A stretch of DNA of 32,000 bases from Faecalibaculum rodentium (GTDB lineage: Bacteria; Bacillota_I; Bacilli_A; Erysipelotrichales; Erysipelotrichaceae), in NCBI RefSeq assembly GCF_001564455.1, contig NZ_CP011391.1, forward strand, positions 2,280,001 to 2,312,000. Reading direction: 5' to 3'. Below, in pieces: positions 2,427 through 30,857 of this stretch. Position 1 is the stretch's first letter; each line of letters opens with the position of its first letter. The notes beneath the pieces were generated by a model. It was given only the letters and a program-made list of their open reading frames with translations. It had not been told where the DNA came from and searched no databases. A program made the position numbers and the translations under genes.

Positions 2427-3428
2427 ATGAAAGAAACAGGAAACAGGAAGCGGCAGATGTCCTATACACATTTGTGGGTTTTGACCGCATTTGCAGTGGT
2501 GGCGGTCTTCGGCATCTGCTGGGGCATCCTGGCAGCGGACTACCACACTACACAGGCGGCAAGACATGAAAAGCTCGGGGAAGCCGTGAAAGCCAGGAAG
2601 GACCTGGAATCCCGTCTGTCGCAGGAAACCAATTTCCGGAACCTGGACCAGGGGGACTATGACACGTTCATGGCCATGGTGGCGCAGGACAATGCAGGGG
2701 CGTATCAGGATCTGGAGCCTTACAACAACGAGAAAACGGAAATCCCCGATGACGTGGCCGCACGGGTGGACACCGCGGATCCCGACACAGACGGCAGGCG
2801 CTACCTGGATCTCTGGGATGACCAGAGCATCCCTTCGGAGTACCTGACCTTCCTGTCCCGGGATGATCAGCGCCTCGACATCGTGTCCAGGATCCATGAG
2901 CTGGAGGGAAACACCCAGGCCCCGGAGACCCTGAGCGAGTCCCTGGAAACTGTCCCGCATCTTCTGCAGTGGGACGAACGGTGGGCGTATCTGCCCTATG
3001 GCACAAGCAATATGCTGTTTGCGGGGTGTGCACCCACGTCGCTGGCCATGGTGTTTTCCTACCTGAACCAGGATCCGTCCATCACGCCGTACGCCGTGGC
3101 GCAGTTCTCCGAACAGGCCGGTGACTATGTGGACGGTATCGGAAGCTCCCATTCCCTGCTGGGGGATGCGGCAAACAACTGGGGAATCCAGTTCGAAGCC
3201 ATTTCCCCGACGAAGGAAATGATGGAGGCATCCCTGAATGCCGGCAACATTCTGGTGCTGTCGATGAATCCGGGGGACTTCACGAGAGTCGGTCACTTCA
3301 TTGTGGTGACGGGAATGGAAGACGGTCAGTTCAAGGTGCTGGACCCCAACTCCAATAAAAACACCCGTCTCTGGGATCCCCAGACCGTGGCTGACCAGAC
3401 TGCCTTCGCCTGGGCCTACTGGAAGTAG
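2427..3428 (+). CDS. Membrane-anchored C39-like (papain-fold) peptidase domain protein
   Basis: One N-terminal TM helix (LWVLTAFAVVAVFGICWGILA). The C-terminal domain has LLQWDERWAYLPYG...GCAPTSLAMVFSYLN (catalytic Cys context) and GHFIVVTGMEDGQFKVLDPNS (His context), as in Peptidase_C39_2 proteins. RBS GGAAGGGGAGG lies upstream. Confidence 0.7.
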   Translation: MKETGNRKRQMSYTHLWVLTAFAVVAVFGICWGILAADYHTTQAARHEKLGEAVKARKDLESRLSQETNFRNLDQGDYDTFMAMVAQDNAGAYQDLEPYNNEKTEIPDDVAARVDTADPDTDGRRYLDLWDDQSIPSEYLTFLSRDDQRLDIVSRIHELEGNTQAPETLSESLETVPHLLQWDERWAYLPYGTSNMLFAGCAPTSLAMVFSYLNQDPSITPYAVAQFSEQAGDYVDGIGSSHSLLGDAANNWGIQFEAISPTKEMMEASLNAGNILVLSMNPGDFTRVGHFIVVTGMEDGQFKVLDPNSNKNTRLWDPQTVADQTAFAWAYWK

Positions 3429-3655
3429 GGCGCCGCGTTGACCTGGCCGGGATACCGGCCAAGTCAACCCGCCGGCTTTCAGGTTGACGCGATGAATTTA
3501 CATTTGAAGCTGAATTGCAGTATGGAGGCCTGTCACGTATATGGTGGCCGGGTAGGTAACAGGTGCCATATATAAGAAAAATTAACAAAATGTTTCCTTA
3601 TATATGTGAATTAAGCCCCTTTTCTGTCATAATATAGACAGAGAAGGGGCCTTCT

Positions 3656-4324
3656 ATGATCAGAAAAAGCGAACTCACAAAGGATTTCTACAAGCCAAAG
3701 GAAGCGGGTACCCTGATTGGCAGAGGACCAAGAACTGTCTCTAGCTTGGTCCGTGCCGGAAAACTTGAAGCCATAAGAAGCGACATCAACCGGATCTTGA
3801 TCCCCAGGGACAGTGTGGCCAAACTGCTCGAACAGTCAGGGCTTCTGCTGGAAGACGAGGATGCAAGAAGGGATGCCATCTATGCAAGAGCTTCCTCTCA
3901 TGAGCAGAAAAACAGGGGTGATCTGGAAAGACAGGTCCTGGACATCATGAATGCCTGTGAAAAAGAAGGGCTGGACAAACCGGTCATCATCAGAGATACC
4001 GGATCCGGGCTCAACACAAAGCGAAAAGGGCTGGTCCGGCTGATCGAAATGGCAAAGAATCACGAGATCAAGAGGATCTTCATCACCAGCAAAGACCGGC
4101 TGACCAGGTTTGGCTATGAATATCTGGAAGAGCTGTTCGCCATGGCAGGCGTGGAACTGACCACTCTGCAGGAAGAAGAAAACAAGGACCTTCAGGAGGA
4201 ACTGGTCGACGATATGATTAGCCTGCTGGCATCCTTTTCCGGAAAGCTGTACCGGATCAGGGGGAACAAGAAAAAGAAGATGCGGGAGATCATAGACTCT
4301 GTACCTGAGGAGGACCGGGAATGA
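3656..4324 (+). CDS. tnpA: IS607-family transposase TnpA (MerR-like HTH + serine recombinase/resolvase domain)
   Basis: N-terminal HTH (YKPKEAGTLIGRGPRTVSSLVRAGKLEAIR). Catalytic-serine motif IYARASSHEQK..DLERQ. Also DTGSGLNTKRKGL, KDRLTRFGYEYLEELF and LVDDMISLLASFSGKLY, all hallmarks of IS607 TnpA. Confidence 0.9.
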   Translation: MIRKSELTKDFYKPKEAGTLIGRGPRTVSSLVRAGKLEAIRSDINRILIPRDSVAKLLEQSGLLLEDEDARRDAIYARASSHEQKNRGDLERQVLDIMNACEKEGLDKPVIIRDTGSGLNTKRKGLVRLIEMAKNHEIKRIFITSKDRLTRFGYEYLEELFAMAGVELTTLQEEENKDLQEELVDDMISLLASFSGKLYRIRGNKKKKMREIIDSVPEEDRE

Positions 4325-5742
4325 GGACCATGGATATGCCTCCTGTTTATGAACAGCCGGGATCTCTGATCCTCCCTTTGGAGATACGTCTGGATAAAAG
4401 ACTGTGCCCGGAAGTGATCGACTGTATCGATGACGGGCTTTCTGTTTATTCAAGTGCATACAGGTACGCCTTTTCCCAGATCGACCACGGGCAGAGAAAC
4501 CTGAACCAGCTCACCAAAGACCTCCAGTACAAATACGGCCTGAAAAGCCGGGCAGCCAATTCCATTGCCAGAGACGCAAAAGCCAGACATCAGGCAGGAC
4601 TGGAACTGGCCAGAGTGCAGGACAAAAACCTTCGTGCTTCCATACTCCGTAAAAAGAAACGGCTGAAAAAGCTGAAGAAAACAGTAGAGGAAAAAAGCAG
4701 AGAAGCCGCAGCCGGCCGACTGGGGCATCACGAACTCTCTCATTACCGCAGACAGAAGCATGTTCTGTGGCGTCTGGGCCAGCTGATCCCCAGGCTGGAA
4801 GCCAAACTGAAGCGATGGAAGAAGGATATCGAAAACAGGCACGTCCGCCTTTGCTTTGGCACAAAGAAACTCTTCAAGGCTCAGTACCACCTGAAAGAAA
4901 ACGGTCTGTCCTGTCATGAGGGATGGAAAGAGCTGTTTGTCAGAAGCAGGGACCGGATGATGTACCTCTGCGGTAAAAACGATGAGAAAAACGGGAACCA
5001 GCTCTGCCATCTGTTCCGCATGGAAGACGGGAGCTGGACGATTGGGATCCTTCCTGTGCTCAAGCCAGAAAAAGGACAGGACAAGATCATCACCGGTCCG
5101 GTAAAGATCACCCATGCACCCGGGCTTGAACTGCTCAATAAGACATTTGACGGCTTTGAAGCTGCCCAGCCAGCGAAGCAGGCGGTCAGTGTCCGGATCC
5201 TGAGGAGGAAGAAGGGGCATTATGTCCAGTTCTATCTTCATCTGCCAAAACCGGAAGGATGGAGCACTTCCTCTTTTGAGGGAGCGATCGGTCTTGATTT
5301 CAATGCCGACCACATAGCGCTTTGCGAGACGGACCGGAGCGGGAGCGTAGTGTATGCAAGAAGGATCAGCCTGCATGGATTCGGCAGGAAGAAGCATAAC
5401 TATGATCAGGGGATCGCTCAGATGATGTCTGCAGTAAAGGAGATAACGGGCGAAGCCCGCTTGAAGGGGAAAGATCTTGTCATCGAAAATCTTGACTTCT
5501 CCGGCAAAAAAACAGATCTCCAGAAGAACAGGGACTACAACCGGATGATCACTCAGCTGGCTTACGGCCGATACACCCAGGCAGTAAAGAGAAGATGCTT
5601 CAAGGACAACGTGGACCTGAAGATCGTGGATCCGGCTTATACATCAAAGAAAGCAAAAGAGACAGTATGCAGGGAACTTGGCATCAATGTTCATCTCGGT
5701 GCTGCCTGCATGATCGCAAGAAGAGGACTCGGCCTCTTTTGA
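4321..5742 (+). CDS. tnpB: TnpB-related protein (divergent: no zinc ribbon, RuvC-III Asp position occupied by His)
   Basis: ATGA overlap with tnpA. RuvC-I is AIGLDFNADHIAL (D326) and RuvC-II is DLVIENLDF (E389). The TnpB signature IVDPAYTS (aa 435-442) is followed directly by KKAKETVCRELGINVHLGAACMIARRGLGLF and the stop. There is no CxxC pair. The D-x-N-A-A-x-N-I motif reads H-L-G-A-A-C-M-I. Confidence 0.75.
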   Translation: MRTMDMPPVYEQPGSLILPLEIRLDKRLCPEVIDCIDDGLSVYSSAYRYAFSQIDHGQRNLNQLTKDLQYKYGLKSRAANSIARDAKARHQAGLELARVQDKNLRASILRKKKRLKKLKKTVEEKSREAAAGRLGHHELSHYRRQKHVLWRLGQLIPRLEAKLKRWKKDIENRHVRLCFGTKKLFKAQYHLKENGLSCHEGWKELFVRSRDRMMYLCGKNDEKNGNQLCHLFRMEDGSWTIGILPVLKPEKGQDKIITGPVKITHAPGLELLNKTFDGFEAAQPAKQAVSVRILRRKKGHYVQFYLHLPKPEGWSTSSFEGAIGLDFNADHIALCETDRSGSVVYARRISLHGFGRKKHNYDQGIAQMMSAVKEITGEARLKGKDLVIENLDFSGKKTDLQKNRDYNRMITQLAYGRYTQAVKRRCFKDNVDLKIVDPAYTSKKAKETVCRELGINVHLGAACMIARRGLGLF

Positions 5743-5744
5743 CA

Positions 5745-5930
5745 ACTGAGAAACACCTCCCACAGGGAGGAAAGAAACGCCGGAGGATGTTTCTTTCAGG
5801 CCTTGTGGGAGGAGCTTTAAAATCGCTGTCCGGCTCAATGCATTCAGGTGCAGGCCCCGGAACAGAACTGGCATCAGGCGCAGGATGCTGGCCCGTCATA
5901 GGCGGGAGGAAAACCTGAATCCAGTTTTTC
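5745..5930 (+). ncRNA. Candidate structured RNA (omega-RNA-like scaffold or complex terminator) just 3' of the TnpB-related gene
   Basis: A 12-bp stem (5756-5767 with 5801-5812) encloses a 9-bp hairpin (GAAAGAAAC 5770-5778 / GTTTCTTTC 5789-5797). An 8-bp long-range stem (ATTCAGGT 5842-5849 / ACCTGAAT 5913-5920) encloses the hairpin 5868-5891. A T-run follows at 5925-5929. No credible ORF. Confidence 0.3.
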
Positions 5931-6130
5931 CAATTATTTGCTACGCTTTTTCTGATGGATGCAGATCCGCTGTTCTGCCTCACCGCCCTGGAGTATGGCG
6001 GCACAAGTCTGCGTGATCCCGAAACACATTGTTTCCTCTTTACTTGCCTGCTGACACCGCGCAGAATCAGAAAAGAAGGCACTGGCGGGATGGCTTGTCC
6101 ATCATCGGCCAGAGGAAGGAATGCAACGGT

Positions 6131-7153
6131 ATGGATCTTGAACTGTTCGGAACGCTGGGTCCCGCGTGTCACGATGTGAAGCGTCTGAAGCGGATGATTG
6201 AATCGGGGATGAACGGCATCCGGCTGAATCTCTCGCATGGGTCTCTGGAGGAAAAACAGGACTGGATCGCGGCGCTGCATGAGGCACAGAAAGAAACGGG
6301 GCAGCGGGTGACCCTGCTCGTGGACCTCAGGGAACGGGAATTGCGGATCCAGGACATGGAACCGCTGGATCTGGAAACCGGCAGCTGTGTCGGATTTGGC
6401 ACAGACATCCCGGCGGATCGGGCCCTGTGTTCTCTGATCACACCGGGGATGACCATTCAGCTGGATGACGGGCGTGTGAAGCTCAGGGCGCTGAACCTGA
6501 ATGCCGACGGCTCCTGGGACTGCGAGGTACTGCAGGGAGGCTGCCTGCAGGGACGGAAAAGCTGTGCCCTGGAAGGGGCGCCGATACCCTTTTCTCCTCT
6601 CTGTGAAGATGACCTGAAAAACCTGGACAACGCCAGGCGCTTCGGGGTGACGGCACTGATGGTCCCCTTTGTGCAAAGTGCACGGGATCTGGAAACGGTG
6701 CGCCGGGAACTGACACACAGGGGGCTGAACCTGCGGCTTTATGCGAAGATCGAGAACGAGGAAGGGTGCCGGAATCTGGAAAAGATCCTGCCGCTGGCGG
6801 ATATGATCGTCATTGCACGCGGGGACCTGGGGCAGGATACGGGTCTTGTGCGGCTGCCCGGGATCCAGCGGGATCTGGAACGGCGCTGCCAGCGTGGCGG
6901 GAAGCCATGGATGGTGGTGACGGAACTCCTTGCCTCCATGGTCCAGTCTCCAGTCTGCACACGGGCGGAAGCCAATGATGTGTTCCGGGCCGTGGCAGAC
7001 GGCGCTTCGGCGGTGATGCTCACGAACGAAACCGCGGCCGGGCAGTGGCCGGAGGAAGCCATGGATATGCTGTGCCGCCTGGCCCGGGAAGGGCTTCGGG
7101 AACGCGAAGCGCTGGCGTCGGCGGTCTGCGATGGCAGGCCACTGGATCATTGA
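6131..7153 (+). CDS. Pyruvate-kinase-like protein (A barrel + B lid only, no C-terminal domain)
   Basis: Starts MDLELFGTLGPA at ATG 6131, downstream of AGAGGAAGGA. PK motifs present: GMNGIRLNLSHG, AKIENEEG, IARGDLGQD, TRAEANDV, MLTNETAAGQWPEEA. The protein ends about 340 aa, where canonical PKs continue with a ~120-aa C domain. Confidence 0.7.
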   Translation: MDLELFGTLGPACHDVKRLKRMIESGMNGIRLNLSHGSLEEKQDWIAALHEAQKETGQRVTLLVDLRERELRIQDMEPLDLETGSCVGFGTDIPADRALCSLITPGMTIQLDDGRVKLRALNLNADGSWDCEVLQGGCLQGRKSCALEGAPIPFSPLCEDDLKNLDNARRFGVTALMVPFVQSARDLETVRRELTHRGLNLRLYAKIENEEGCRNLEKILPLADMIVIARGDLGQDTGLVRLPGIQRDLERRCQRGGKPWMVVTELLASMVQSPVCTRAEANDVFRAVADGASAVMLTNETAAGQWPEEAMDMLCRLAREGLREREALASAVCDGRPLDH

Positions 7154-25428: not shown

Positions 25429-25728
25429 TCAGTTTCCCAGAATGCTTATGGCTTTTTTTAGAATCTTCAAAGCCTCCTGTGAGTCCCTGAGTTCTCGTTG
25501 AAGCCTGACATTTTCTTTGAGAAGGTCTTTTTCTTCCTTGTCATTATTATGAGCTGTCACAGCTGAAAGACCGGATCGGTTGAAATCTGCCCTCCATCTT
25601 TCCAGGGTGCTGCGGCCTACACCAAGTGTTTCAGCACATTCTATAACGGTCATTTCTGGATGGTTAGTCAAAAATTGAACCGCATCCTGCTTGAATTCAT
25701 CTGTAAATGTTTTACGTTTCTTTGCCAT
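25429..25728 (-). CDS. IS3-family transposase OrfA (HTH)
   Basis: MAKKRKTFTDEFKQDAVQFL...IECAETLGVGRSTLERW is the IS3/IS911 OrfA HTH. A leucine-zipper-like tail follows. The slippery sequence CTAAAAAAAGCC lies near its 3' end. Confidence 0.9.
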   Translation of the reverse strand: MAKKRKTFTDEFKQDAVQFLTNHPEMTVIECAETLGVGRSTLERWRADFNRSGLSAVTAHNNDKEEKDLLKENVRLQRELRDSQEALKILKKAISILGN

Positions 25729-25824
25729 AGATTTTCCTCTTTCATAGTGATTGTAGTTCTATGACATAGATACCGGTATTCTTAGAATCTCTAAATGGAC
25801 TGTCCGTAAATTATTCTAAGGTCA

Positions 25825-26691
25825 GGCATCAGGCCTGATCCCCAGAAGTTCACTCTGATGCTTGAGCAGATAGTATTCCGGAGACCCTTTTCGAGTTCCT
25901 TTCATCACACGGATCCTCACTCTGTTCAGGCTCTTCGTATATTCCTGGACCACATGGAACCTGTCCACGGCGAATATCGCTTTGGGAAAGAAAGTCGCAG
26001 CTATCTCCCTGTAGGGCCTGTACATATCGGACGAGATGTACTCCACTCTGTCTCTCTCGCTTCTGGGAAACTTTCGGAAATAAGCTGCCAGATACTCCTT
26101 TTTCCTGGAAGGGAGCACATCCACCGGGGACTGGGCATCGTAGTCCAGGAGCATGCATACATACTTTGAATCATCAGATTTGAAGGAATATGTTTCGTCG
26201 ATCTGCATCACCCTGCATAGTTTCACCGGCACAGGGTAACTTACACACATGTCGAATATCTTCATCACTGTCGTAGCTGAAACGTGATGACGCTCTCCTA
26301 CAGAAGCAAAAGTTTCATTTGGAGACCTGAGATCTTCGATGATTGCTTTTCCTGTCAATATGGAGATCCGCTGTCTTTTCATGGCGAAGGGATTGTCTTC
26401 TCCATAGGTGCGGTGGCAGTCTTTGCATTTGTAACGCCTGGCGTTGTAGATGAGAGTGCATTTGCGGTCTGTAAGGACATCATGGTTTATCACACGGGGA
26501 GTGTAGTTGAAAACGACGATGTTATGACCACCGCATCGGGGGCATTCAGGAAACGCAGGAACCAAAGTGACCTCCACAAGCATCTGACCGATGCCAGGGG
26601 AGGTCGATATGTTCTGGACCCTGGAAGCATCAAGACCGAACAGTTCAAGAGCTGTATTTTCCAGGGAATTTTTGACTTTTACAGCCATCAT
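25825..26691 (-). pseudogene. ISL3 transposase, N-terminal fragment (zf-ISL3 + HTH + start of DDE domain)
   Basis: CPRCGGHNIVVFNY...YKCKDC zinc finger. MQIDETYSFK (first D region). AVDRFHVVQ. Translation ends at a TGA supplied by the IS3 terminus (25822-25824). Confidence 0.85.
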
Positions 26692-26694
26692 TCA

Positions 26695-27306
26695 TCACCT
26701 CGATGACAGTATGGCGGAAGGCGGAACAGGTTCCGATGAGAGGAAGGTTGGAAAGACCATGGTCTTTCCCCACTGGGCTCCATTGGATACAGATGTATCA
26801 GAATTGCCATTGGTTTCGTACTGCAATCGCTGAATGAACTTTGGAACAAGAGAAAAGAAGCTCCTGAAACCGGATGATGGGAATTCCGGGAACCGACGAC
26901 GAAAATCCAGTACGAATCGGTACAGGGATGAGGATTCAGTATCTGGAGAGAAATCCGCCAGGCGCAGCGGCTCCCCTGCAGCAGACTTTTTCAGGGCCAT
27001 GGAGGCATCTTCGGTGGAAAACAGATAATAGGGTATGAAAATGTCGGGAAGGACCCGGTGGACGTGGCGGCAGTGTGGGCAACGGACGCGTCTTATTGAG
27101 ATGGTGAAAGTATCACAAGGCAGCTTAATGGTGCGGGGGACACTACCATGACAGTGAAGATCATGACCGCAAAAAGGGCAGACGAAGAGCTTTTCACTGG
27201 AGCAGAAGGCCTGGAAAAGCAGGTCATAGATCCTCTGCAGCATCTCCTGACTTGAGATATCGGAAAGTGATCGTATCTGATTCAGGCGTTTGTCTTTCGG
27301 GGACAC
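26695..27306 (-). CDS. Zinc-ribbon accessory protein (DUF6431-like), co-oriented with and 3 nt upstream of the ISL3 transposase
   Basis: CPFCGHDLHCHGSVPRTIKLPCDTFTISIRRVRCPHCRHVHRVLPDIFIPYYLFS has the C-x2-C ... HG ... R-x-x-C-x2-C-x-x-H ... LP...PY pattern I associate with DUF6431. The track start is a GTG, and the ATG at aa 22 is an alternative. Confidence 0.6.
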   Translation of the reverse strand: MSPKDKRLNQIRSLSDISSQEMLQRIYDLLFQAFCSSEKLFVCPFCGHDLHCHGSVPRTIKLPCDTFTISIRRVRCPHCRHVHRVLPDIFIPYYLFSTEDASMALKKSAAGEPLRLADFSPDTESSSLYRFVLDFRRRFPEFPSSGFRSFFSLVPKFIQRLQYETNGNSDTSVSNGAQWGKTMVFPTFLSSEPVPPSAILSSR

Positions 27307-27770
27307 AAACTTCTTGAAAACCCATGTGATTATCTGTAACGTAAAGGTTGCCTAACGGTGGGACAGAGCAAAGTAGGGTCGAAACTAGATTGCACTGTCT
27401 CTTTTTCTTTCTATACAGTGTATTGTGACCGAAAAGGCCTCAAGATAAAAGGAGTTGTTCTGACCTTCCACCTCACAGGCTGGATAGGACAGGAACAACT
27501 CCTTTTCAGTTTTACTGATTAAATTTGGAGGCTTGATTCGACCTCACAAATCTTTGGATATTCCATTTTTTCCGTTTATAACAAGAAAAAGGGGCTGTAA
27601 TCAGCCTACAGACCGTAAAACCGGCCTTACTGTTACAACCCCTATTGATTTGGGAAAGTTGCATTCTACTTCTGGAAGGTTTCCAACAGTTGGCTAAAAC
27701 CTCTGTAAACGCTTCTGTTAAATAGATCCACCTATAAGGAAAACCGGTACCCTTTCGGATGCCGGCTGTC

Positions 27771-27878
27771 TGTGTGGCCATTTGTTATTTTTGCCTTTCG
27801 GCTATCGTCACCGTCTCTGAGCTTGACTTCTGTGTTCGGGATGGGAACAGGTATTTCCTCAGCACTGTGATGACCACA
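27771..27878 (-). rRNA. rrf: 5S rRNA (short, ~108 nt, with an atypical 3' domain)
   Basis: The reverse complement reads UGUGGUCAUCACAGUGCUGAGGAAAUACCUGUUCCCAUCCCGAACACAGAAGUCAAGCUCAGAG..., which aligns to the 5' two-thirds of bacterial 5S. Helix I closes with ...AUGGCCACACA. Confidence 0.75.
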
Positions 27879-27973
27879 TCTTCCGGAATCATCTCTTCCA
27901 GGTCACTCCCTGAAAACCGTACATGATATGTCTTTCGTTTCCTGTCTTTCCGCAAAGCTGCGGGCTTCTTCTT

Positions 27974-30857
<2,884 letters not shown>

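Follow-up and report, generated by a model that had tools for sequence, protein, structure and literature searches.

Can a TnpB-like protein that lacks the zinc ribbon, and carries a histidine where RuvC-III normally supplies an aspartate, still act as an RNA-guided nuclease inside a mobile element? The question is raised by a window of 32,000 nucleotides from Faecalibaculum rodentium (contig NZ_CP011391.1, positions 2,280,001 to 2,312,000; all positions below are those of the window), in which an IS607-family element of about 2.4 kb occupies positions 3547..5947 on the + strand. Its tnpA gene (3656..4324, + strand) is followed by a tnpB-like gene (4321..5742, + strand; 473 aa, WP_067559559.1 / AMK55652.1). 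A preceding sequence-only reading had suggested that the product of the latter could be a nuclease-impaired, RNA-guided DNA binder or, alternatively, could come from a TnpB clade that is uncharacterised and has its active site re-wired. Here, sequence comparison assigns the protein to the published RIIIr-4 clade of TnpB, and the explanation that we favour, with moderate confidence, is an IS607 element with an RNA-guided RIIIr-4 TnpB whose D326-E389-H458 (D-E-H) site is probably still catalytic.

Clade assignment and residue conservation

TnpB proteins fall into five major clades, among which RIIIr-4 is defined by the replacement of the RuvC-III Asp with His together with the absence of the C4 zinc finger; it is the sole clade of the five reported to lack this finger (Altae-Tran, Shmakov, Makarova, Wolf, Kannan, Zhang and Koonin, PNAS 2023, PMC10691335). 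The corresponding motifs can be read directly in the 473-aa protein: D326 as the RuvC-I Asp (codon 5296..5298, + strand), E389 as the RuvC-II Glu (codon 5485..5487, + strand), PAYTS at residues 438-442 and, only 15 residues after it, H458 at the RuvC-III position (codon 5692..5694, + strand). The 31 residues that follow PAYTS contain two isolated cysteines (C450 and C463) and no CxxC, and the two CxxC pairs are thus absent, as the sequence-only reading had reported. Compared with the D-E-D triad and zinc ribbon (TNB) that characterise TnpB/OMEGA nucleases, the protein has His as its third residue and no zinc ribbon. TnpB models match it weakly and solely across residues 370-446 (TIGR01766, 32 bits); the curated model guided_TnpB, which has a cutoff of 100, reaches 29 bits, and the Pfam Cas12f1-like TNB model gives an E value of 0.15.

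The substitution and the shortened C-terminus are shared by the homologs. In an alignment of 65 sequences with 20-82% identity, D326, N328, E389, A461 and R467 are invariant, and the motif residues D326, E389, PAYTS and H458 are invariant or at least 90% conserved, His being found at position 458 in 59 of the 65 sequences. When the C-terminus was scored in 215 full-length homologs with a locatable C-terminal motif, the H458 position held His in 196, Gly in 15, Asp in 3 and Ala in 1. PAYTS is separated from this position by 14-22 residues, and CxxC occurs in none of these spacers (0/215). A word-indexed search yielded 164 homologs, and an exhaustive profile search of 1.84 billion cluster representatives gave 6,149 matches at E ≤ 1e-3, of which 1,870 reached E ≤ 1e-30. 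The His and the loss of the zinc ribbon are clade-wide across a very large family, and the invariance of D326 and E389 argues for a maintained site. The sequence-only reading had named a cryptic RuvC-III carboxylate or zinc-binding module, and a one-off decayed copy with intact relatives, as outcomes that would overturn it; neither appeared, no zinc ribbon being present in any of the 215 homologs and the same architecture recurring in every homolog examined.

Assignment to RIIIr-4 comes from comparison with the one ortholog of the clade that has been sampled, that of Nocardiopsis dassonvillei (ortholog 39, 529 aa; Nety et al., CRISPR J 2023, PMC10278001). Our family profile aligned with the first 399 aa of this ortholog over 356 columns (hhalign, 99.7% probability, E 8.9e-26). 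Translation of the start of its omegaRNA gives VDPAYTS, 20 residues without Cys and then H-D-A-A-S-I-A-V-G-R-R, a tail in the same register as H458...R467-R468 of the window protein. Because of the profile match and this same-register tail motif, both with a labelled ortholog, we place the 473-aa protein in RIIIr-4; judged from sequence, it combines the conserved Asp-to-His replacement, the absent C4 zinc finger and homology to a labelled member. The idea of a re-wired clade was correct insofar as the His and the zinc-finger loss are clade-wide and D326 and E389 invariant; the clade is, however, already published, with one member sampled.

The family also shows variation around these common features. 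The Gly-bearing homologs form a subclade with the motif LNSGTAAxLVLARR (P0076, P0078, P0084, P0086, P0091, P0096, P0102, P0104, P0105, P0107 and P0109-P0113), whose source-named members are cyanobacterial; homolog P0069 has Asp at the H458 position. D338, within the ETDRxGN motif (336-342), is the sole other acidic residue of the RuvC region that is at least 80% conserved (D in 61/65, 94%); examined as an alternative third carboxylate, it is located in the β2-β3 turn predicted by the AlphaFold2 model described below. Most of the distant homologs (510-600 aa) continue past ARRGLG with a Cys-poor C-terminal extension of 70-100 residues (columns 610-796 of alignment A1), which carries a conserved R-N-x-x-K-H-V-W-S-x-W segment and is absent from the Faecalibaculum branch (466-479 aa) and from some homologs of 460-490 aa.

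Predicted fold and active-site assignment

An AlphaFold2 model built with the family alignment (predicted local distance difference test score, pLDDT, 92.1; predicted template modelling score, pTM, 0.84) places D326 in the strand 322-327, E389 at the end of the strand 385-389 and H458 where the last helix (457-469) begins, an arrangement that corresponds to the usual RuvC topology. The long N-terminus of about 325 residues before RuvC-I, in which the sequence-only reading had recognised a coiled-coil-like stretch, is modelled with two long helices (76-130 and 136-171). The top Foldseek matches in the PDB included AsCas12f (E 2.3e-9), Cas12k with a query-normalised TM-score of 0.54, CnCas12f, Cas12m and CasX, as well as Thermus thermophilus RuvC for the core. 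As modelled, the protein has a split RuvC with a RuvC-I Asp and a RuvC-II Glu on a Cas12f-like WED/REC/RuvC fold.

When the family profile was aligned with ortholog 1 of Nety et al., a canonical TnpB with experimental activity (hhalign, 96.7% probability), D326 fell opposite the RuvC-I Asp and E389 opposite the RuvC-II Glu, which upholds the earlier naming of both residues; the alignment ends at PAYTS, just short of the zinc ribbon of the canonical protein. For the tails, simple pairwise alignment is ambiguous: an ungapped alignment sets H458 opposite the canonical Asp, and a 2-residue gap sets it opposite the His of 'HAD'. Under either tail alignment, the sequence offers no carboxylate at the RuvC-III position. 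The earlier claim that H458 replaces the RuvC-III Asp holds with respect to the missing carboxylate, and exact positional equivalence is ambiguous by alignment.

Element ends and the 3′ RNA

Both open reading frames (ORFs), on the + strand, and their ATGA overlap were found exactly as the sequence-only reading had described them. The product of tnpA (222 aa) has an N-terminal helix-turn-helix (HTH) domain followed by a resolvase catalytic domain (Pfam Resolvase, E 5.8e-19; HTH_17, E 8.5e-8). With 164 bits (E 2.5e-48) against the NCBIfam model NF033518 'IS607 family transposase', it exceeds the curated cutoff of 110 and is an IS607 serine recombinase, the intact tnpA that had been proposed. The extent of the element follows from its copies. 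Similarity to a paralogous tnpA-tnpB element that is 80% identical (L011/L013) spans window positions 3547 to 5947, and 10/10 diverged copies lose similarity immediately past GCTACGCT / CCAATTATTTGCTACGCT at 5947; the right boundary is exact, and the left boundary is placed to within a few bases. The left-end motif GGGTAGGTAACAGGTGCC (3550..3567, + strand), shared by the tnpA-carrying copies as GGGTAGGnnACnnnTGCC, was found with a regular-expression search in the window and in L011, L024, L025 and L029; the sequences upstream of it are unrelated from copy to copy. No common motif is obvious in the left flanks of five independent copies. The G+C content of the element is 0.51-0.52, compared with about 0.60 in its flanks.

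The 205 nt that separate the stop codon from the right end (5743..5947, + strand) have a minimum free energy of -82.8 kcal/mol (z = -4.58). The RNAalifold consensus of eight diverged copies contains 58 pairs, 12 of them with compensatory changes. Per-site divergence in this 3′ region is 0.19, whereas synonymous codons of the gene diverge by 0.376 per codon and the sequence just past the right end by 0.79. Conservation and covariation at the sequence level thus point to a structured RNA that is encoded at the 3′ end of tnpB and ends at the transposon right end, a candidate omegaRNA scaffold. No Rfam family, group I intron and RAGATH-18 included, matched positions 3000-6600 at E ≤ 1, and none reached the gathering score. 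In a comparison of only six sequences, the last 34 ORF codons show no extra synonymous constraint (0.369 versus a gene average of 0.376). If the RNA works like a TnpB omegaRNA, the putative guide would be the first 20 nt of the right flank (5948..5967, + strand); its start is put at 5948 because conservation drops sharply at 5947/5948, which is the criterion by which the scaffold-guide boundary is placed in the field (Nety et al., PMC10278001).

Copies, mobility and genomic context

The exact TnpB-like protein is listed on 289 contigs. Among the 23 contigs read, the F. rodentium copy was found at one chromosomal locus, with a peptidase-C39-like gene on one side and pyruvate kinase on the other, in 10/10 places shown (L001-L010). 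The genome of Erysipelotrichaceae bacterium OPF54 carries five tnpA-tnpB copies with three independent flank pairs, from which it follows that this type of IS607 element has moved. The window copy, L011, L015-L018 and L030 occupy distinct genomic sites. We are therefore dealing with an IS607 element that has shared ends at several unrelated sites and is multi-copy in a related genome. No second copy of the element was found in the window, and the sequence expected of an empty site, the left flank joined to the right flank, had no match among the metagenome contigs searched.

The sequence-only reading had asked whether homologs always sit next to an IS607 tnpA, and they do not. An overlapping serine-recombinase tnpA accompanies distant homologs in Methylacidimicrobium (Verrucomicrobia) and in a Chlamydiales metagenome-assembled genome (Chlamydiae), and tnpA is absent beside two close paralogs and beside the Sporosarcina and Rhizobium homologs.

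Some copies have peculiarities of their own. Three identical OPF54 copies (L025, L026 and L027; BQKD01000001.1 at 2,323,044, 2,394,050 and 2,465,056) are also identical in both of their flanks and follow one another at intervals of about 71 kb, which suggests a triplicated segment of about 71 kb carrying the element rather than three separate insertions. In L015, L016 and L017 (protein P0003; locus coordinates 2922-4615), the tnpB gene stands alone with only 55 bp of the tnpA 3′ end left; the three have one common upstream flank and three different downstream flanks, diverging exactly at the element right end, a pattern that could reflect right-end rearrangement or metagenome mis-assembly across the repeat. 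A paralog with 79% identity is additionally present in the F. rodentium type-strain genome in the form of fragments (189, 240 and 269 aa). Directly 3′ of the tnpB homolog of Methylacidimicrobium sp. AP8 (L019), about 2 kb (4130-6132) have no called gene. Elsewhere in the window, an rRNA operon is encoded on the - strand (5S 27772-27878, 23S 27974-30857 and a partial 16S from 31093), preceded by a stretch of low G+C content (20001-28000 region) with a minimum of 0.33 at 21-22 kb compared with about 0.60 elsewhere.

Proposed mechanism and alternative explanations

Based on these observations, we propose the following hypothetical scheme, in which (i) the TnpA serine recombinase would move the element; (ii) the TnpB-like protein, a presumed RNA-guided protein of the Cas12f/Cas12k-like type, would bind the structured RNA from the conserved 205-nt 3′ region; (iii) read-through into the right flank would supply the guide; and (iv) the protein-RNA complex would, like other TnpBs, act on the element-free donor joint, thereby helping the element to persist, with the D326-E389-H458 site probably still being catalytic. 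The authors of the clade likewise inferred RIIIr-4 to be active, from its conservation (PMC10691335). In a cell-free reaction, the Nocardiopsis ortholog processed its omegaRNA at a clear site, with a scaffold of 466 nt (PMC10278001). Since omegaRNA processing by AmaTnpB requires the RuvC site (PMC10278001), this processing may be a hint of catalysis by a D-E-H site.

Several points weigh against this scheme. Ortholog 39 was scored 'N' in the cell-free screen for a target-adjacent motif (TAM) on double-stranded DNA (dsDNA; PMC10278001), and our literature search found no RIIIr-4 member with demonstrated DNA cleavage or other demonstrated activity, nor any experimental work on the clade later than that of Nety et al. 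The members of the Gly subclade in the alignment keep both the RuvC-I Asp (D326) and the RuvC-II Glu (E389), so that the His is not indispensable for whatever role these proteins have. Going by sequence, H458 could correspond to the His of the canonical 'HAD' and not to the Asp, and its nearness to D326 and E389 in three dimensions is putative. The 3′ RNA is a computational prediction. Finally, the F. rodentium copy occupies one fixed locus in all ten places shown and no empty site was found, so that movement is evident for the element type rather than for this particular copy.

The first alternative, possible in our estimation although doubtful, is the one that the sequence-only reading preferred: an RNA-guided protein that does not cut dsDNA, its D-E-H site only processing its own RNA or acting on single-stranded DNA (ssDNA) or RNA, which would make it a programmable binder within a transposon, with copy-number control, target immunity or donor-joint repression as examples of its role. 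The sole tested RIIIr-4 ortholog agrees with this view, having processed its omegaRNA without giving a signal in the dsDNA TAM screen, and Nety et al. suggest for such screen-negative orthologs that substrates other than dsDNA may be targeted (PMC10278001). The zinc finger that binds the target nucleic acid is missing, Gly is tolerated at the His position in a subclade, and the best structural matches of the model include Cas12k and Cas12m; neither Cas12m nor the V-K effector Cas12k cleaves its DNA targets (PMC10691335). The screen result carries little weight, however, because 32/59 orthologs of all clades failed in it and 27/59 were active (PMC10278001). D326 and E389 are invariant family-wide, in contrast to inactivated TnpB derivatives, in which the catalytic residues are replaced; the flagellin- and DppD-linked TnpBs are described as immobilised and inactivated (PMC10691335). 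The element, moreover, keeps its tnpA and is multi-copy. In a closely connected form of this explanation, the D-E-H site and the zinc-finger loss would together have changed the substrate, restricting the protein to RNA (self-processing), to ssDNA or to nicking; we think this possible as well, albeit rather unlikely.

A protein that is not RNA-guided at all, but a RuvC-like structure-specific nuclease or an accessory of the serine recombinase in strand exchange or resolution, is improbable. Its RuvC core does resemble that of T. thermophilus RuvC, the active site of which also uses a His, and the computational origin of the RNA evidence for this element leaves room for such a function. Against it, the match to Cas12f and Cas12k extends over the whole fold and takes in the WED/REC-like part at the N-terminus. 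In addition, the element has, directly at its right end, a conserved structured RNA in which pairs covary, a related RIIIr-4 ortholog gives a defined omegaRNA, and many members of the family have no tnpA beside them.

A decayed, C-terminally truncated tnpB pseudogene that lost its zinc ribbon and Asp by recent deletion in one copy would fit the standard TnpB models, which match only residues 370-446 at or below their cutoffs, but it is refuted by the homolog survey, with the same architecture from 98% down to 20% identity and in several phyla, as well as opposed by the 289 contigs with the exact protein and an AlphaFold2 model confident through the C-terminus, and we dismiss it almost entirely. 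A frameshift or hidden downstream zinc ribbon was likewise rejected, as no frame past 5742 encodes CxxC pairs.

Significance

The combination of a RuvC-III His and a lost zinc finger, as well as its conservation, had already been published; the observation made at this locus is real but not new, and the element for this reason adds little as a discovery. The RNA-guided RIIIr-4 TnpB that we favour is nevertheless carried here by a compact (473 aa), apparently intact and tnpA-linked element with a clean right end and a short, well-conserved RNA. Together with a closely related genome that holds several copies, these features make the Faecalibaculum element a reasonable test case for whether a D-E-H RuvC without a zinc finger performs RNA-guided DNA cleavage. 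Should the substrate have been altered instead, a very large clade, including transposon-borne members, would consist of RNA-guided proteins that support IS607 elements not through homing cleavage of dsDNA but in some other way, such as binding to the donor joint or the target.

Comparison with known systems

TldRs are immobile TnpB derivatives that have lost their catalytic residues and are not accompanied by tnpA. The window protein resembles them as a TnpB derivative without the canonical RuvC-III Asp. In contrast to TldRs, it keeps the invariant D326 and E389, lies adjacent to tnpA and belongs to a multi-copy element, so that neither the loss of the RuvC catalytic residues nor the loss of the transposon context that mark TldRs is observed. 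Cas12k and Cas12m are among its best structural matches (TM-score up to 0.54); unlike these systems, the locus has no CRISPR array and no Tn7-like genes, and the catalytic Asp and Glu are kept.

With the canonical TnpBs of IS200/IS605 and IS607 elements (ISDra2, AmaTnpB; 'Typical' and 'Derived'), the protein has the RuvC-I Asp, the RuvC-II Glu and the P-x-x-T-S motif in common, along with a predicted WED/REC and split-RuvC architecture, a candidate 3′ RNA that ends at the right end and a tnpA partner. It differs from them in lacking the zinc finger, in having His for the Asp of D-x-N-A-A, in the approximately 325 residues that precede RuvC-I and include a long helical hairpin, and in being barely detected by the standard profiles (29 bits versus a cutoff of 100).

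The Nocardiopsis ortholog 39 is similar in its domain order, in the PAYTS...H-x-A-A-x-x-x-x-G-R-R tail without Cys and in having its RNA encoded by the 3′ end of the gene and the sequence directly after it. Identity to our family profile is about 19% (hhalign), its length is 529 aa versus 473 aa here, and its scaffold of 466 nt starts inside the ORF, whereas RNA-level constraint at the present locus is confined to the 205-nt 3′ untranslated region. In its table row, the field 'Clade associations' has no entry, whereas TnpA is listed in other rows (PMC10278001). With the RIIIr-4 clade as a whole, the window protein shares the conserved replacement of the RuvC-III Asp by His, the missing C4 zinc finger and, at the level of its family, full-length homology to the labelled ortholog. 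It differs from the clade in nothing of kind: the Faecalibaculum branch is simply short, at 466-479 aa, and does without the extension of 70-100 aa found in most members of 510-600 aa.

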